Below are positions 27,329 through 63,483 of a stretch of DNA of 64,000 nt, one piece after another. Origin of the DNA: a virus; the IMG/VR virus record IMGVR_UViG_3300045988_098422; one strand, written 5' to 3'. The position numbers and the translations under genes are program-made. The notes beneath the pieces were generated by a model. It ran no database searches, had not been told where the DNA came from, and saw only the letters and a program-made list of their open reading frames with translations. The first letter of the stretch is position 1; every line of letters begins with the position of its first letter.

Positions 27329-27946
27329 ATGAAGAAAGATTTCCTTAATGTTTCTCCTGATACAGGGGGGGGTAGCGGAACGGTAACTGTCACCGCTGAC
27401 CCTAATTTAAACTTTGCTAGTCGTACGACAACTTTGAATTTTAATGCTGATGGAGAAGTATTAAAAGAGGTTGAAGCGTTACAGTTTGGGAATACCATTA
27501 TTCCGCAATTTTATTTAAGTCCAACCGTTTCAAGTAACAATGACTTATGGGCGTTGAAAATTACAACAACCTTAGAACTAGAAGAATTTGCGGCTGGAGC
27601 TTATAATTTCTTGGTGGATTGTACCGCTAATAAGAAGATAGCTACGGAAGGGACAGCTCCTAATGTAACTATTTGTATTTCGGTGATTAATAGTGTTATC
27701 ATACCGAGTGGTGGAAGTAACATAAATAACCGAGAATACGATATGTATTACAGTAAAGACAACGGTACTAAGACTAAGATGACAGTAAGTAAAGACCAAT
27801 ACAGTCAGTTTATTTCTTTCCGTTTTATGGAGAGGGCTACATTTGAAGAACTAACTGTTTCTAATTATCGCTTTTGGCTTCGCAATATAAACGATGCAAG
27901 TGAAATAGAACTTCCAGTTAGGTTTAGATTAGCTTATCATTATTAA
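27329..27946 (+). CDS. poly-G paralog family member A (G8, in frame, ON); BACON/Ig-like N-module (inference)
   Basis: MKKDFLNVSPDTGGGSGTVTVTADPNLNFASRTTTLNFNADGEVLKEVEALQ shared with 4 paralogs; 205 aa. Confidence 0.75.
   Translation: MKKDFLNVSPDTGGGSGTVTVTADPNLNFASRTTTLNFNADGEVLKEVEALQFGNTIIPQFYLSPTVSSNNDLWALKITTTLELEEFAAGAYNFLVDCTANKKIATEGTAPNVTICISVINSVIIPSGGSNINNREYDMYYSKDNGTKTKMTVSKDQYSQFISFRFMERATFEELTVSNYRFWLRNINDASEIELPVRFRLAYHY
27365..27372 (+). repeat. G8 homopolymer encoding Gly-Gly-Gly
   Basis: ACA GGG GGG GGT counted directly. Confidence 0.95.
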
Positions 27947-49039: not shown

Positions 49040-49661
49040 ATGAAGAAAGATTTTATTACAGTTCTTCCCGAATCGGGGGGGGGGTGACGCACAGGTTCAA
49101 GTAACCGCTGACGTCAATCCAAGTTTCGCAAGTCGTGAAACTACTATCAATTTTAACGCCAACGGGCAAGTTCTTAAAAGTATTCGGGCTGTTCAGGACG
49201 GTATGCCGTTTGTTTGTCAATTAGGTTTTGATGCACCTGCTAATTTAAGTCAAGGGTTCTTTATTCAATATTTTGGGCTTACTCGTACAGGTGGAACTAA
49301 TGGCTGTCCGCTAATAAATGGAATTATAGCCAGAATTATAAAGTTAGACAACGACTTTAAATTAATTCCTATGTTTGGTTGTTTGCGTTCATTTTGGAAA
49401 GAAACCGATGATAAAGAATTAATTGCCGAGCTTAGATGGACGGACAATACAGGGTATGAAGTTGGGAAAACGTACCTAAATTTTACTTTTGACAACGAAG
49501 ACGGTGAGGAGTGGGCTAATTATACCGCTGAATTTAGCGGGTCGGATTTAGTTGTGCCGAGTGATGCTTACAGATTAAGAGTGAGTGTTGGCTTTGGACG
49601 TGGTGATGTTGGTATCGAAGATAATAATTACATTTGGCAGTATTATTTATCTTTCCAATAA
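49040..49661 (+). CDS. poly-G paralog family member B (G10, frame-shifted OFF as written)
   Basis: ATG 49040 gives MKKDFITVLPESGGG then TGA. With G9 it reads SGGGDAQVQVTADVNPSFASRETTINFNANGQVLKSIRAVQDGMPFVCQ..., in frame with tracked ORF 49203..49661. Confidence 0.7.
49075..49084 (+). repeat. G10 homopolymer
   Basis: aatcGGGGGG GGGGtgac counted directly. Confidence 0.95.
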
Positions 49662-54652: not shown

Positions 54653-55304
54653 ATGAAGAAAGATTTTGTAACAATTACCCCAGATACGGGGGGGGGGCTC
54701 GGCTACTCCACAAGTAACCGCTGAACCCAATGTGACGGCACAGTCACGCTCAACAACTCTCAATTTTGATGCCAACGGAAAGCAGCTTAAATCCGTTCAA
54801 GTCAATCAACTCGGTATTCCATGGTTCATAAATGTGTGTACCGCCATTCAGGGCGAAATAACTGAAGCCAATACAAACGTCGGACATTCTTTAAAAGAAG
54901 TGGATTTTTCGCCTAGTGGCGATGGTGGTAGTATGCCAAATATTCCATTCTTTCAGTATGATTTTGAAATAAATAATTTCAATTACACCAGTAAGACGGT
55001 TTGGTATTTAGCTCTGGAAGCTAATATATTAGGTACTTTGATTGATACCAATACGGAATATTTAATTCTGGAATTTGATTTAGGCAAAGGAGATGGGTGG
55101 GAACGAATGGAATTTATGTGGGAAAATACCTTTGAGGGCTATCAATATTGGCGCAATACGACACCCAACGTTTACCCCAATGAATATCCGACAGTTAAAA
55201 CTGTCCAAATGCGAGTTGGAATTGGTGATAATACTGACCCAGAGCCTATTCATACTTATCTTGCTCAATTTACAGTAAATATCGTATTAAGCCCCCGACC
55301 CTAG
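54653..55304 (+). CDS. poly-G paralog family member C (G10, frame-shifted OFF as written)
   Basis: ATG 54653 gives MKKDFVTITPDTGGGLGYSTSNR then stop. With G9 it reads TGGGSATPQVTAEPNVTAQSRSTTLNFDANGKQLK, in frame with tracked ORF 54732..55304. Confidence 0.7.
54688..54697 (+). repeat. G10 homopolymer
   Basis: atacGGG GGGGGGGctc counted directly. Confidence 0.95.
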
Positions 55305-56971: not shown

Positions 56972-57594
56972 ATGAAGAAAGATTTTATTACTGTAACCCC
57001 TGAATCGGGGGGGGGGCAGGCACAACAGTAAACGTTGTTGCTGACCCTAATTTTGGCTCTATGCCTAGAAAAACAACCTTAAATTTTGCGGCAAATGGGC
57101 AACCGCTTAACAAAGGAATAGAAGTTTCTCAAATAGGAAGTTTCTTTCAATTATTTGCTTTTCCCAACTTTACTTTAGCAACAACCTCACCCAATCAACA
57201 GTACATGTTGAAAATGTTTTTGGATAGTTTGGACTATGATGAGGTTGAATTTCAAGGACAAACTTTTAATGTTCCTTATTATGGGGTACAAACTACCAAA
57301 GCCACGGGAGTAACTCTGTATGATGCCTTCTTAGACTTCCATTTATTATTTTCCACAGAAGCAATTAATAGCTTACAAATCACTGAATTTGTGGCTGATG
57401 TTGAATCAAATAATGGAGGGGTAAGCACTGTGTCTTTAACGCCCGCCCAAGTAGAAACAAATTTGGGTGTGTCAGAATTTACACTAAGCACTAAATCACT
57501 TAGTGGATTACAAACTTTGCATCAGGTCACTTTTTATGCCATTATAAACAATGCGAAAGTGCAAATTTGCAGAGTAGGAAATGCCGTTAGATAA
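56972..57594 (+). CDS. poly-G paralog family member D (G10, frame-shifted OFF as written)
   Basis: ATG 56972 gives MKKDFITVTPESGGGQAQQ then stop. With G11 (or G8) it reads SGG(G)AGTTVNVVADPNFGSMPRKTTLNFAANGQPLNK, in frame with tracked ORF 57061..57594. Confidence 0.7.
57007..57016 (+). repeat. G10 homopolymer
   Basis: aatcGGGG GGGGGGcagg counted directly. Confidence 0.95.
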
Positions 57595-58982: not shown

Positions 58983-59580
58983 AATCTTTTTGGATTGTTA
59001 CAGAGCTTATACGTTGTCGGGGTTTATCTTTCCAAGACTTTTAGGAATCACCGCTGAGGATTTTTGTCGTAAGGGGGCTCCAGGGGTTTCTTTATATTAT
59101 TTATTTAACAGTGAATGAGGTATTACGTAGTAATACCGAAATGAGCTAGTAAATAAATAATATTTTATTATCATGATAATCAATTGATTGGGATTGACGT
59201 GCGTACGCGAGGCTCTTCCCAACCCCTTGTGCACGTGTATGTGAGGGGGCGTGCATGGACATGAGGACTGGACAGATAGGAAATATGGACTGACACCACG
59301 ATGATGCGTATAAGGGTCAAAAGCCAATTGGGAGCGTCACATCTGTGGCACTATCGGCTCCGGTAACTAGGCTCATGCAGATATTGACTTCAGGTTTATC
59401 TCACATTTGTCTTGTTTGAATTTTTAAGATTTGTTTTTATTTGACATTGATTGGGGCAGGGGGCGCACAGCCCCCAACTCTTGCCCGTTTCCCACCTAAT
59501 TAGACAGGACGTTTAGGAATTACCCAAATTTTATGTATCTTTACACCGATTAAATTGTTTTGAACTAAAACTTTAAAGAT
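58983..59580. other. about 600-nt divergent non-coding region with GC-rich core
   Basis: No credible ORF. AT-rich flanks surround a GC-rich core at about 59195-59370. Hairpin GGGGGC-GCACA-GCCCCC lies at about 59457-59473. Confidence 0.5.
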
Positions 59581-59931
59581 ATGAAAACAGTTTCACAAAA
59601 AGTAGAGGGTTTCCTTTATAAAACAGCTTTAGCAAATCCGGGAGGCATCCCAGTTCCGGTGTCTATCCAAAGAGCTTTTGCGGTGGGTGTTCCAACAGAA
59701 GATGTAACCGCTCAAAGTTTCGAGCCTGACACAATGCAACAGCCGGAAGGATTTTTGATAATCCCGTTAAAAGCGGGTACGGTGAAAGTGCATTTGGTTG
59801 GAGCTTCCACTTTTGAGGACTACACAATTAGTGAAGCAGAAATTTCTGCTTGGATTGGAAAACCAACTCCTTATCTGGTTGACAAAGTGTACAAAGATGG
59901 GACAACAGCCGAATTGAATATTGGATGGTAA
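59581..59931 (+). CDS. hypothetical protein (start of probable virion module)
   Basis: Tracked ORF, 116 aa. Confidence 0.55.
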   Translation: MKTVSQKVEGFLYKTALANPGGIPVPVSIQRAFAVGVPTEDVTAQSFEPDTMQQPEGFLIIPLKAGTVKVHLVGASTFEDYTISEAEISAWIGKPTPYLVDKVYKDGTTAELNIGW

Positions 59932-59949
59932 AATTAAAATAAGACAAGT

Positions 59950-61047
59950 ATGGAAAAGAAAATTTCTTTGGCTACATTTGAACAAGTAGCCGCAGATAAT
60001 GGTTATGAAGTGTTTACCGCTGAAGAGGTAGCCGCATATTACAAAGATGGCTTGCAGAAAAGCATGAAGAATGAATTAACTTCTGATGAAAAGGAGTTGT
60101 TTGCGGCTGACATTGCTTTCTTACAAAAAGCCGTTTGTGTTGATGAGAATGGTAAAGAGGTGACACGTTATTTCCGTCCGGAACAGGTTAACTGGGAAAA
60201 GACAGAAGATGGCGTGTTGTTGAAAGGTATTGCCGGAGTTTTTGCTGATACTCCTACTAACAGAAAATTGAATCGTGTTGGAGAGGCTTTTGTGCCTTCA
60301 CCGGATTTTATGAAGTCCTTGGAAAGCGAGGAAATTAACGAAGACATTATTAAAGCCATGAGAACAGGGCGTTACGCTGATACTCCTGAAAATCGTCGCT
60401 TACACCGTGTCGGTCAGCCCTATGCAAAGCGTGAGGGTAAAGGTACAGAAGAAACCGACAAAGAAAAGAAGCGTATTGGTGACACAAAAGCCGAAATTGA
60501 GAAGCTGGATGCCAAGTATGGTAAAGTATATACCGCTCTTGGAAAACGCAAACAAGAGGCTTTAGAGAGGGGCGATAAGGCAGAGGCAAAACGTATGTCG
60601 GAAGCCATTACCAGAATGGAAAATGAACACGATGCCGAAGTAGCTAAACTTAAAGAAAAAGAGGGTGGTGAAAAAGGTGACGAAAAACTACACGTAAAAG
60701 CCGACGAACGTAAAGGTGGCGAAAAGGGTGATAAAAAGCTACATGAGGAAGCTGAAAAGAAAAAGAAAGAGCCCAATCCGGGTTCCAAGAAAAATCCTTT
60801 GAAGATAGACAGCATTAAGGATATTCACAAAGATGCAGCCTATCAGAAAATTACCATTGACGGTCACGAAGCTACTATTGTGAACCGTGGCACATACGAC
60901 GAAGATACTCACAAGCCGATATATTATGTTGAAGCAGGCAGTCAGACGCACGCATATACAGGCTTGGACATGCTGAAAGAAAAGATTGAGGAATTTGTGC
61001 GTGTTGCCAATGGTGGAAAGGCAGACAGTGACGATAAAAAAAAGTGA
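59950..61047 (+). CDS. hypothetical Lys/Glu-rich protein with two ADTPxNRxLxRVG motifs (scaffold/internal-protein-like)
   Basis: FADTPTNRKLNRVGEAF and YADTPENRRLHRVGQPY; tandem KGGEKGD-KLH repeat; ends in GAT AAA AAA AAG TGA. Confidence 0.6.
   Translation: MEKKISLATFEQVAADNGYEVFTAEEVAAYYKDGLQKSMKNELTSDEKELFAADIAFLQKAVCVDENGKEVTRYFRPEQVNWEKTEDGVLLKGIAGVFADTPTNRKLNRVGEAFVPSPDFMKSLESEEINEDIIKAMRTGRYADTPENRRLHRVGQPYAKREGKGTEETDKEKKRIGDTKAEIEKLDAKYGKVYTALGKRKQEALERGDKAEAKRMSEAITRMENEHDAEVAKLKEKEGGEKGDEKLHVKADERKGGEKGDKKLHEEAEKKKKEPNPGSKKNPLKIDSIKDIHKDAAYQKITIDGHEATIVNRGTYDEDTHKPIYYVEAGSQTHAYTGLDMLKEKIEEFVRVANGGKADSDDKKK
61036..61043 (+). repeat. A8 homopolymer / A AAA AAG heptamer at gene end
   Basis: gatAAAAAAAAgtga counted directly. 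Confidence 0.95.
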
Positions 61048-61321
61048 AGTAACACCCTCTGACGCATCCAAATCTTTCTTTGAAAGCAAATTTAAGAATT
61101 TGAAATGGAAGGATGGAGGTGATAAAGATTACCCAAGTGTTGTCGCTCACAAGAAATTTAGAGGCGTGCCTATTGATATAGAAATTGATGAAGATGGGCA
61201 GGGAGAAATTATTATTGGTGATGCCGACGAAGGAATTGAGTTTGGGGCACTTACATCTGAAAAAGCCGCAAAGGAACTTTGGGATACTATTTTAGAGGAA
61301 CTTGAATATTACGAGGACTAA
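61043..61321 (+). CDS. 92-codon ORF in the +1 frame with no start codon of its own after the A8 tract: candidate recoded C-terminal extension
   Basis: SEVTPSDASKSFFESKFKNLKWKDGG...ILEELEYYED contains no Met. The only ATGs of tracked ORF 60986..61321 lie 38-62 nt inside the upstream gene and give a non-protein-like peptide. Confidence 0.45.
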   Translation, partial: SEVTPSDASKSFFESKFKNLKWKDGGDKDYPSVVAHKKFRGVPIDIEIDEDGQGEIIIGDADEGIEFGALTSEKAAKELWDTILEELEYYED

Positions 61322-61332
61322 AATTAAGAAAA

Positions 61333-61575
61333 ATGGAAGATTTATTAATGAAATCAGTGAATAAACATTACTTTCCTGAAAAGGAACGTAAAGAGCTAGC
61401 CAAAGAGGGCGAAGCCATGCCAGATGGTTCTTTTCCTATTCGTAATGAACAAGACTTGAAGGACGCCATACGTAGTGTCGGTAGAGCTAAAGACCCCGCA
61501 GCCGCTAGACGGTGGATAAAGAAGCGTGCCAAAGAAATGGGTAAAGAGGCAACGTTACCGGAAGATTGGAAATAA
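61333..61575 (+). CDS. conserved small phage protein
   Basis: Tracked ORF, 80 aa; AMPDGSFPIRNEQDLKDAIRSVGRA motif seen in many phage proteins (recollection). Confidence 0.55.
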   Translation: MEDLLMKSVNKHYFPEKERKELAKEGEAMPDGSFPIRNEQDLKDAIRSVGRAKDPAAARRWIKKRAKEMGKEATLPEDWK

Positions 61576-61599
61576 TTTAAGAATTTCGGTGGCACTATC

Positions 61600-61630
61600 T
61601 GGGATATTCGTTTTTAAATGTTTATCTTTG
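61600..61630 (+). promoter_or_regulatory. variant cassette promoter (TGG / TATCTTTG)
   Basis: TGG 61600-02, 20-nt spacer, TATCTTTG 61623-30; upstream TTAAGAATTTCGGTGGCACTATC arm. Confidence 0.5.
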
Positions 61631-61656
61631 TAGTGCCACTTTAATTTTGATTAGAT

Positions 61657-63483
61657 ATGGACGATATAGAAAAATCACGCCACGGTCGGTATGAAGACAA
61701 CGCTAAGAACAGGCGGCTTCATCGTGTAGGTCAAGAATATGGCAGTAAGAAGCAGGAAGACGAAACTGTTGACCCTAGCAAATTAACTCTTGACCAATTA
61801 CATAAGGAAATCAATGAGTTGGGGCACATATTAGGCGGTAGGATTAAGGATGGTAGACGTACAGAAGATGTAGAAAAGCGTATTTCTGATTTGCTTAAAT
61901 ATGCTCCCGATAAGGTATTGGAAAGCACCTTAGAAGCTCTTAGGACAAATGTCAAGCCAAACCCGACCGCAAAAATTGCCGCCAAACTGACGGAAATGGA
62001 AATTAACCGTCGCAAAACAGAGGGTTCTGCAAAACAGACTGAAAAGAAAGAGGAAACTCCTAAGGAAGAGCCAAAAGCTCAATCTGAAGAGCCTGAAACA
62101 TATACCCGTGTGAAGTTTGATGATGTGCCTCAAAGCGGAAAGGTAAATCTTAAGAAATACCTTTCTAATAAAATTAGGGCGGAGGTTGACAAGGCTTGGA
62201 AAGACAAGGCTAAAATCGGTGACAAAACTTTGCAGGACATGGAAAAGGGTATGGTCGCAGAGTTTAACAAAAACTTTGACAATCTAAGCAAGTCAAAACG
62301 AGCCGAAGCCCTGTACAGTATTATGACGGTTAAGGCAGAAATAGCCCGTCGGGGTAGAGGGGCTAAAAACGAGGAAAAACAAGGTGAGCAGCTTGCATCT
62401 AAACAGGAAACTCCAACGGAAAAGCCTAAAGTAGACTATAAGAAACCTGAATCCTTTAATGAGCTTTACACCAGAGTTCGAAACACATGGTCGGATATTA
62501 TGGAAACAAAGCCCAAGGAAGTAGATTTTACTAAGCCTAAAGAAGTGGCTGAAATGGCTTCTGCATTTTTTCCTGGAACAACTATATCTAAAGTAGACGG
62601 TGAAGAAGAATATATGGTTCAATATCCTGGGGATGCAAGTAGGTTTATGCGTATTGATAAATATACGAGTTCTCCTAAAGCCTTGAATGATAAAATAAGG
62701 ATGTTTTTATCTATGGATATGGACATGCGCACTAGACAGAATTTTTCAAATGATGAAAAAGAAAAATTTGATAGGATATTTGCGCTAGTTGCGGAAAGTG
62801 TGGCTGATAGGGCACTTGTTAAAGATATGAACGTTGCCCGCACAAAAGCATTTGAAGAACAGGTTGATGAAAACAATAGGAATATTTCAAGGAATGTTAG
62901 GGTAAGAAAGGGTAAACCGATGAGCTTTGAGGAAGCTAATCAAGGTCGTGGAAATCCTAAATATCGTTCTGATGAACTTTTTCGTATAAACTGTCAAACA
63001 TGTGTGGTAATTCATGAATTGCGATTAAGAGGATTTGATTTGGGTGCGAAGCCAAAAACAAGTTCTGCACAATTTGCAATGGCAAAAGATTCCTCCTATG
63101 CTTGGATAGACCCGTTGACAGGGCAGCAACCCGAAGCTGTGAGAATAACTTGTGCCCCAGAGAATAAAGTAATTAAGGTCAGAAAAAGCCAGAAATCAAA
63201 GTCGGATTTACGTAAAAATATTTTAGAAGCTACAAAAGAGGTAGGACGTTATAATTTTTCTTATGGATGGGAAAACGGTAAGGATAGTTCTGGACATATC
63301 ATAACCGCTGAAAGGCACGCTGATGGGAATTTGACATTTTACGACCCTCAAAATGGGAAGAGCGTGCCTATGGTAGAATTATTGGATGAGGTTAGTCCTA
63401 AATATTTGTGCAGGATAATTCGAGTAGATAATTTGCTTATTAAACCGGATATTGTTAAAGATTACGCAATGCAATATGAGTAA
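61657..63483 (+). CDS. large multidomain protein; N-terminal NRRLHRVG motif, C-terminal predicted papain-fold Cys-His-Asp domain
   Basis: GRYEDNAKNRRLHRVGQEYG at the N-terminus; C-terminus RINCQTCVVIHELRLRG ... SSGHIITAERHADGNLTFYDPQNG. Confidence 0.55.
   Translation: MDDIEKSRHGRYEDNAKNRRLHRVGQEYGSKKQEDETVDPSKLTLDQLHKEINELGHILGGRIKDGRRTEDVEKRISDLLKYAPDKVLESTLEALRTNVKPNPTAKIAAKLTEMEINRRKTEGSAKQTEKKEETPKEEPKAQSEEPETYTRVKFDDVPQSGKVNLKKYLSNKIRAEVDKAWKDKAKIGDKTLQDMEKGMVAEFNKNFDNLSKSKRAEALYSIMTVKAEIARRGRGAKNEEKQGEQLASKQETPTEKPKVDYKKPESFNELYTRVRNTWSDIMETKPKEVDFTKPKEVAEMASAFFPGTTISKVDGEEEYMVQYPGDASRFMRIDKYTSSPKALNDKIRMFLSMDMDMRTRQNFSNDEKEKFDRIFALVAESVADRALVKDMNVARTKAFEEQVDENNRNISRNVRVRKGKPMSFEEANQGRGNPKYRSDELFRINCQTCVVIHELRLRGFDLGAKPKTSSAQFAMAKDSSYAWIDPLTGQQPEAVRITCAPENKVIKVRKSQKSKSDLRKNILEATKEVGRYNFSYGWENGKDSSGHIITAERHADGNLTFYDPQNGKSVPMVELLDEVSPKYLCRIIRVDNLLIKPDIVKDYAMQYE

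Follow-up and report, generated by a model that had tools for sequence, protein, structure and literature searches.

A candidate hypermutable A8 switch in the linker before an optional C-terminal domain of a gut phage gene family

We analyzed a 64,000-nucleotide stretch of viral DNA (IMG/VR record IMGVR_UViG_3300045988_098422; the whole stretch is called the window below) in which a 365-amino-acid (aa) open reading frame (ORF) on the plus strand (59950..61047) ends at an uninterrupted run of eight A's, beyond which a second frame stays open for 92 codons. We propose, with a probability of roughly 60%, that this A8 run is a hypermutable homopolymeric switch of the contingency type, lying in a lysine-rich linker before an optional 92-residue C-terminal domain. 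Comparison of closely related genomes indicates that changes in the length of the run are heritable and recur at the DNA level, and that they toggle the gene between short and fused coding. The gene is part of a group of modular genes located shortly before the portal gene.

Results

The A8 tract and its reading frames

The short-form ORF ends GAT AAA AAA AAG TGA. The A8 tract, which is the proposed switch and the only run of seven or more A's in the window, occupies positions 61036..61043 on the plus strand and encodes the KK(K) of an interdomain linker, with the 0-frame stop (TGA, 61045-61047) directly after the tract codons. An earlier note on this DNA had described this ending, an A AAA AAG heptamer within the tract and a 92-codon open +1 frame, and we found all three in the sequence, the heptamer in the 0 frame. 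The C-terminal extension module (61043..61321, plus strand), shifted by +1 from the frame of the short ORF, runs from AGT at 61043 to GAC at 61318, reads SEVTPSDASK...EELEYYED and ends at a TAA stop (61319-61321). The note was also right that a −1 slip would lead only to a short tail, as the −1 frame of the window allele reads K-V-K-stop. Its statement that the extension has no start codon holds for ATG codons after the tract, of which there are none. There is, however, an in-frame ATG (61010..61012, plus strand) 26 nucleotides (nt) 5′ of the tract, at which gene callers start a separate 103-aa ORF, and the extension frame also contains a TTG at 61100 and a GTG at 61166.

The conserved N-terminal domain of the 365-aa protein bears two ADTPxNRxLxRVG motifs. 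It is followed by a helical hairpin, a disordered linker of GGEKGDxKLH repeats, a third alpha/beta domain and, at the end of the protein, the Lys-rich linker encoded by the A tract.

Tract length differs between near-identical genomes

Public contigs were searched with the flanks of the tract as anchors and a free gap between them. This search gave 20 independent loci with near-identical flanks; together with the window, L024/L025 and L026, they make up a census of 24 independent assemblies, from which L011 was left out as a chance anchor match without an A tract. The run was pure A in all 24 genomes, but its length was not constant: A8 was found in 14 assemblies, A10 and A11 in 3 each, and A7 and A9 in 2 each. 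A13 was seen as well, at the protein level (KKKK-SEV). A8 is the modal length in all three clades of the alignment, one of which is 14% divergent. The consequence for the product follows the frame. A7, A10 and A13 alleles give fused proteins of 456, 457 and 458 aa, respectively, whereas A8 gives a protein of 365 aa and A9 one of 367 aa, the short forms of A8, A9 and A11 alleles together spanning 365 to 367 aa. The suggestion of the earlier note that the extension is joined through the A tract, giving short and long forms, is borne out by the many relatives that encode the fused proteins.

These differences in length are found between genomes that are otherwise nearly or wholly identical. L003 (A8) and L010 (A11) differ at none of 1,640 sites, L009 (A10) and L015 (A11) have no substitutions in the 1.64-kb alignment, and L019 (A8) and L016 (A9) have two in 1.64 kb. 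The window itself differs at 8 sites from its closest relative, L007 (99.5% identical), whose A7 tract leaves one fused gene. At least six independent changes of tract length fall inside a clade with about 0.3% diversity. In contrast, the 19 × 1.64-kb alignment contains only two other coding indels, both singletons, and shorter runs in it are stable. The length variation spans several unrelated data sets, including SPAdes-style short-read assemblies. On this comparison, the run appears to mutate far faster than its flanks, and to do so recurrently. Three features of contingency loci are found together here: a pure tract, length change that outpaces substitution, and a consequence for the frame and product.

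A search of JGI, ENA and Logan contigs showed that 34 of them encode exactly the 365-aa A8 protein of the window. Fused 457-aa (A10) forms were present on at least 29 contigs and in-frame fused alleles overall on at least 34, counted over 30 of the 635 members of the protein cluster. The earlier note had taken A7 in the DNA to mean a single 456-aa gene and an assembly error. A7 does occur in the closest relative, but A8 is not an assembly error, given the 34 contigs with the identical A8 product and the three clades in which A8 is the commonest length. Nor did the note's fixed out-of-frame geometry, which needed a +1 or −2 ribosomal shift, survive the comparison, since tract length appears to be a fast-changing, heritable DNA polymorphism that ranges from A7 to A13.

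The extension as a coding sequence and protein module

Compared with the 14%-divergent L024, the extension carries 47 differences, and these fall 11/3/33 on the three codon positions of its own frame. This skew marks the extension as genuine coding sequence under purifying selection in that frame. The upstream gene is equally skewed (24/13/120 against L024), and the segregating sites of the extension among 19 aligned genomes are distributed 11/4/35. All 92 codons are intact in 18 of these 19 genomes; L017, an A8 genome, has an additional frameshift within the extension.

An AlphaFold2 (AF2) model of a fused homologue, P0001, has four structured parts set apart by disordered linkers. Residues 1-160, 177-238 and 290-355 are structured, residues 161-177, 238-283 and 356-367 are of low confidence, and the extension (residues 368-457) forms an independent alpha/beta domain with a predicted local distance difference test score of 85-90. 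The lysines encoded by the A tract are predicted by this model to fall within the low-confidence interdomain linker 356-367.

The extension is fused in frame in P0001, P0002, P0004 and P0005. Of these, P0004 and P0005 are independent natural deletion variants in which the third domain and the ATG at 61010 are gone and the extension is still fused in frame. An exhaustive HMMER search further identified a 54%-identical homologue of the extension inside the 576-aa protein P0115, where it makes up an internal domain, in frame, at residues 126-199; P0115 also has the NRRxHRVGQ motif of this family near its N terminus. In two relatives of about 77% identity, L022 and L023, the extension is absent: the gene ends GAT AAA TAA, and an 80-aa gene follows 10 nt later. 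The extension of the window sits exactly between GAT AAA and ...TATTACGAGGAC TAA, and the A run therefore marks the 5′ joint of an acquired module.

Two other accounts of the extension were tried and rejected. It is not a diverged duplicate of the preceding domain (BLASTP E = 43). Read-through or reassignment of the TGA codon was rejected because the 0 frame contains further TGA and TAA stops within 16 codons, and it is also contradicted by the third-position substitution signal in the +1 frame.

Homopolymers are otherwise rare in the window

Runs of seven or more A's occur at one site in the 64 kb, both strands considered, whereas dinucleotide shuffles lead one to expect 75 ± 11 matches. Lys-Lys pairs in confident ORFs are written AAA-AAA in only 9 of 131 cases, against 48.6 expected from codon usage, a 5-fold depletion, and the only Lys-Lys-Lys spelled AAA-AAA-AAG in the window is at the A8 tract. 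Because such runs are so rare relative to the shuffles and AAA-AAA is avoided, the A8 tract is more than a chance occurrence. These figures imply selection against slippery runs across the genome, except at five tract sites. Elsewhere in the window there are no runs of seven or more T's and none of six or more C's; A6 runs number 13 and T6 runs 7.

Tracts at other junctions of the modular genes

A pattern-based search for the family yielded 52 loci totaling 353 kb. Homopolymers of seven or more are rare in these loci, yet they recur in two modular genes. One site of recurrence is in the family gene itself, at the junction before the third domain. In the window this junction carries an interrupted A-rich run, AAAAGAAAAAGAAAGA (60755..60770, plus strand), which encodes EKKKKE and is an end point of the in-frame deletion in P0004. 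L042 and L048, at 54-55% identity, have a pure A run at this position (A9 and A8, respectively), and both are out of frame. Their 99-codon downstream module is an approximately 85%-identical homologue of the third domain, which in the window is constitutively in frame. Frameshifted variants at the same junction (P0104, P0110 and P0113) also occur in the window's own lineage. The other gene is a homologue, in the lineage of L043, L045, L046 and L071, of a 608-aa gene described below. There the run precedes a 174-codon module and was found as A14 (out of frame), as A10 twice (in frame) and as A9 (out of frame).

The 608-aa-type gene also has an intergenic A tract 7 nt 5′ of its ATG, with lengths of A7, A9, A9, A10 and A10. 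The sites are at locus position 3968 in L043, L044, L045 and L046 and at position 109 in L071. This tract could be a variable translation initiation leader or promoter spacer.

Poly(G) tracts in BACON-domain paralogues

The window has four G runs, each about 35 nt from the start of one of four paralogous genes that open with ATGAAGAAAGATTT. In the first paralogue (27329-27946), a G8 run at 27365-27372 leaves the gene in frame, with a product of 205 aa. The other three are frameshifted by G10 runs: at 49075-49084 in the second (49040-~49090, with the remainder to 49661), at 54688-54697 in the third (~54653-~54720, with the remainder to 55304) and at 57007-57016 in the fourth (56972-~57030, with the remainder to 57594). 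The restored proteins match the Pfam BACON family (PF13004) above the gathering cutoff. Across relatives, the same paralogue has runs of G7 to G11, and addition or removal of one G restores an ORF of about 203-216 aa in most cases. L028, for example, has G11 in the paralogue at 57007 and encodes an intact 206-aa protein (ON). Among 43 distinct poly(G) instances, 8 were ON and 35 OFF.

Judged from the genomes compared, these tracts appear to bear the classical signature of homopolymeric phase variation. Taken together they look like a phage-encoded poly(G) phasome, arguably more striking than the A tract. Since this signature is present in the same phages, a DNA-level switch is the economical reading for the A run too. 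In the literature searched there was no description of such tracts in gut Bacteroidota phages or in BACON-domain phage genes.

Genomic context and neighboring genes

The window is phage-like, with one dominant coding strand and a GC content of 41%. It encodes a polymerase of the Pol III alpha type, an SbcC-like nuclease, an NAD ligase, helicases, a ribonucleotide reductase and GroEL. Its polymerase is 39% identical to those of Cellulophaga/Tenacibaculum phages and 30% identical to those of Bacteroides phages. A Megablast search with positions 59500-62000 against 50,697 GenBank phage records gave no matches. The relatives are human gut contigs of about 105-108 kb, with complete genomes of about 105 kb. 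Their gene order is a 116-aa gene, the family gene, the 80-aa gene, the 608-aa gene, two small genes and the portal gene, which starts about 3.2 kb past the end of the family gene. The earlier note had called the 365-aa ORF a virion-module gene. This label is contextual, not demonstrated: Pfam and PHROGs gave no match to the 365-aa ORF or the extension, and the portal gene of the relatives is about 3.2 kb downstream. The 80-aa and 116-aa neighbors likewise had no match in either collection, and a search of PDB sequences with the family profile returned nothing meaningful. With the AF2 model, Foldseek found no match in the PDB at E ≤ 1e-3; in BFVD it found only uncharacterized metagenomic phage proteins, aligned through the N-terminal domain.

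The 80-aa gene (61333..61575, plus strand) lies directly downstream of the extension and has its own ATG. In the lineage of L045, its homologue is an in-frame C-terminal module of the family gene. Positions 60640-60775 are recombinogenic (variants P0004, P0005, P0013, P0002/P0007, P0083 and P0084); the copy number of the GGEKGD(E/K)KLH repeat is variable, and some relatives have an insertion module of about 72 aa. In-frame deletions occur between A-rich microhomologies, and chimeras join the extension to the product of the 80-aa gene. The third domain, the extension, the 80-aa protein and alternative Lys/Glu-rich tails are shuffled among lineages as modules. Upstream, the 116-aa gene and the family gene of some relatives are separated by an additional gene of 883-988 aa (L022, 1091-3958; L023, 992-3958; L024, 1-2638). 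The window, where position 59931 is followed directly by 59950, lacks this gene, which is another pre-portal presence/absence polymorphism.

The 608-aa protein (ORF 61657-63483) has a C-terminal match to Pfam Gln_amidase (papain-fold toxin 1, glutamine deamidase; E = 6.8e-15), and in relatives its gene is separated from the portal gene by two small genes. By its sequence it resembles an effector of the polymorphic toxin type, possibly one delivered by the virion. The 365-aa protein contains two copies of the conserved motif (G)RY(A/E)D(T)xxNRRLHRVGQxY (60245-60285 and 60380-60420), and the 608-aa protein has one at its N terminus (61675-61730). This motif is nearly invariant in 49 family members and could be a shared targeting, packaging or processing signal of the pre-portal modular proteins.

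Discussion

We propose that slippage, presumably during DNA replication, alters the length of the run by single A's. Genomes with A7, A10 or A13 would encode one fused long protein of 456-458 aa, and those with A8, A9 or A11 a short protein of 365-367 aa with the extension out of frame, while changes of three A's would merely add or remove one linker lysine. A phage population would thus be a heritable, rapidly reversible mix of short-only and long-form genotypes. In out-of-frame alleles such as the A8 of the window, slippage by RNA polymerase could produce A7 or A10 transcripts and hence a minority of long-form mRNA, so that both isoforms may arise in any infection. RNA polymerase slippage, which the earlier note had also put forward, probably does add some long form from A8 alleles. 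The combination of 19 out-of-frame alleles among 24 with ongoing purifying selection on the module suggests either that the module is expressed from such genomes or that ON variants are frequent.

Several points weigh against a DNA-level switch. The census was compiled from assemblies rather than reads, and some of the differences in length may be noise that arises when mixed populations are collapsed into a consensus, although such effects would themselves be consistent with hypermutability. The 19 out-of-frame alleles of 24, with A8 modal in three clades and the more stable in-frame A7 rare, could mean that the long form normally comes from slippage at the RNA level rather than from switching in the DNA. 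A8 is also short for a classical contingency tract. The adaptive role, bet-hedging, is an inference only, and a tolerated hot spot in a dispensable linker would look similar.

In a rival reading, programmed transcriptional slippage is the main selected mechanism. The out-of-frame genotype (A8, A9 or A11) would be the norm, RNA polymerase would set the short:long ratio in each infected cell by adding or dropping A's, and the DNA variation would be a by-product of little consequence, the mRNA pool being mixed in any case. We consider this rather unlikely as the principal explanation, even though the excess of out-of-frame alleles fits it, with A8 modal in three clades of which one is 14% divergent, as do purifying selection on the extension in A8 lineages, the out-of-frame state of both L042 and L048 despite an essential-looking conserved domain downstream, and the differences between identical haplotypes that go from A8 to A11 and so preserve the frame class. 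Bacterial RNA polymerase slippage is taken to need an A/T run of about 9 or more. A run of A8 is marginal by published figures too: RNA polymerase of the E. coli type is reported to need at least 7 T's and "even more" A's, appreciable slippage on A's requiring more than 7 of them for the E. coli enzyme and far fewer for T7 RNA polymerase (PMC6260861). The A11 tract of Citrobacter tssM1 provides a precedent, with about 20-25% long form and both forms needed (PMC4256274), but the in-frame fused alleles of the present family are frequent (at least 34 contigs), which is unexpected if a fixed short:long ratio is essential.

An initiation-based account is that the extension is a separate overlapping gene, translated from the ATG at 61010 as a 103-aa protein with a 38-nt overlap, the fusions being incidental. 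The ATG is in frame and conserved, gene callers annotate such an ORF (P0077 and P0079), and translation initiation of the Bacteroidota type needs no Shine-Dalgarno sequence, so a start there would be possible. The context of this ATG, however, is like that of an internal ATG. The position weight matrix score of its upstream sequence is −6.19, a value undercut by just 4% of real starts and exceeded by 73% of internal ATGs, the AT fraction upstream of it is 0.56 compared with 0.73 for real starts, and the triplet is fixed by the 0-frame codons AAT GGT. P0004 and P0005 lack it and still have the module fused in frame, the homologous domain of P0115 is internal to a 576-aa protein, the exhaustive search gave no standalone homologue with its own start, and no promoter-like or terminator-like signal was found between the ORFs; we judge this account improbable. 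Programmed ribosomal frameshifting, which the earlier note had raised in its +1 or −2 form, seems to us more improbable still. On A8, tRNA-Lys would have to slip by +1 on A_AAA_A, or else the ribosome, paused on the adjacent UGA, would have to slip by −2 at AAG; on A9 alleles the event would be a classical −1 slip on A_AAA_AAA. The run does contain the A_AAA_AAG heptamer, and at prfB-type sites an adjacent stop codon stimulates frameshifting. A 0-frame stop of this kind, a known stimulator of +1 and −2 shifts, lies right after the run in A8 and A11 alleles, where AAG-UGA follows it (the divergent L024 included), but not in A9 alleles. Ribosomes are also reported to slide on poly(A) Lys codons (PMC4363877). 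Against this, the shift required is +1, −1 or none, depending on the genome, even among near-identical genomes, which is the opposite of conserved programmed sites. No downstream RNA stimulator was found, the 97 nt from 61044 to 61140 having no significant fold (z = −0.91; 37 of 200 shuffles fold as well), and the −1 frame of the window closes after 3 codons while the extension is in +1, so that a −1 shift would fit only A9 alleles. Hardly credible, finally, is the idea of artefact or decay, that is, a homopolymer error of sequencing or assembly in a single 456-aa gene or the remnant of a recently frameshifted pseudogene. Homopolymers are error prone, an A7 tract gives one fused gene in L007 (99.5% identical and closest to the window), and L017 (A8) has a further frameshift inside the extension. 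The tract census largely refutes this reading, with the exact A8 protein on 34 contigs from JGI, ENA and Logan, A8 modal in three clades and shorter runs stable in the same alignments; moreover, 18 of 19 genomes keep the whole extension, purifying selection acts on it, and parallel tracts exist at other junctions in other lineages.

As a kind of mechanism, the hypermutable switch that we favor is known. What is new is its carrier, an uncultured gut phage group and an uncharacterized modular gene family, and its placement, with poly(A) tracts that act as switchable joints in the linkers between domains, the junction concerned varying from lineage to lineage. Hypermutable poly(G) tracts have been reported in Campylobacter phages (Sorensen et al. 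2021, Cell Rep 35:109214, cited in PMC12823448). They too are uninterrupted homopolymers in phage genes whose length varies among progeny or relatives, changing the frame and generating phenotypic diversity, and the G7-G11 tracts of the BACON genes look like their direct counterpart. The A tract differs from them in being poly(A), in lying at a 3′ module junction and in toggling a C-terminal domain rather than a whole protein ON or OFF; the host group is also different here (a gut phage of the Bacteroidota type), and switching is deduced from genome comparison. The contingency loci of coliphages T2 and T4 (Gomez, Barrick and Waters, bioRxiv 10.1101/2025.10.21.683753) are likewise homopolymer repeats in phage ORFs that undergo reversible frameshifts through DNA polymerase slippage, with bet-hedging as their proposed role. 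Those tracts are typically at least 6 bp long and inactivate or restore a gene (agt, rIIA), whereas in the present phages runs are otherwise purged and the tracts are at domain linkers of a modular family, with the junction varying by lineage. The simple-sequence contingency genes that make up the phasomes of Campylobacter, Neisseria and Haemophilus (PMC8355987, PMC6321876) resemble the present loci in that length modulo 3 sets expression, many loci exist per genome and sampled genomes are mostly OFF. They differ in that the loci described here are encoded by a virus and the outcome at the A tract is a switch in domain composition, not gene ON/OFF.

Transcriptional slippage on poly(A) or poly(T) is known elsewhere, for example at the A9 of Thermus dnaX and the T9 of Shigella mxiE, and well-known programmed frameshifts in phages include lambda gpG/gpGT and the tail chaperone family, T7 10A/10B and Ig-like C-terminal extensions. 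The closest parallel in arrangement is Citrobacter rodentium tssM1, in which transcriptional slippage on A11 produces two length variants, the long form amounting to 20-25% (PMC4256274). As here, the poly(A) is just before a premature stop, the downstream frame is a genuine C-terminal domain, and short and long forms come from one gene. In tssM1, however, the DNA tract is fixed and the heterogeneity is in the RNA, while here the tract is polymorphic in the DNA and known from DNA alone; A8 is also shorter than the proven bacterial slippage sites. Programmed ribosomal frameshifting also gives two isoforms of some structural proteins of phages (Xu, Hendrix and Duda 2004; Levin 1993; Baranov 2006; refs 77-79 in PMC8008677). 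What they share with the present gene is a C-terminal extension that a fraction of the protein gains at a slippery site close to where the first ORF ends. The frame relation and heptamer of those sites are conserved across relatives, often with a stimulator, whereas here the frame varies between near-identical genomes and no stimulator was detected.

Homopolymeric contingency loci are central to the way bacteria adapt to their hosts. Among phages, those of Campylobacter and, very recently, the T-even phages are to our knowledge the only ones in which such loci have been shown. The present work points to a widespread gut phage lineage with several tracts, of which the poly(A) ones would be module joints rather than gene ON/OFF switches. 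We suggest, tentatively and at somewhat less than even odds, that this abundant human gut phage group runs a virus-encoded phasome, with poly(A) at the linkers of two pre-portal modular proteins and poly(G) at about codon 13 of at least four BACON paralogues per genome. Bursts would then be combinatorially mixed in the protein domain composition of virions or infections, a form of bet-hedging against variable hosts or mucosal environments, with the mixture set by slippage in both DNA and RNA. The locus offers a concrete, testable case for DNA-level versus RNA-level slippage in a Bacteroidota system. If the proposal is true, annotation pipelines will systematically miscall such genes as truncated proteins and orphan ORFs, and metagenomic "frameshift errors" at these sites would be biology, not noise. 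Gut phage populations may be far more heterogeneous in protein composition than consensus genomes suggest, and homopolymers would serve as programmable joints between protein modules.

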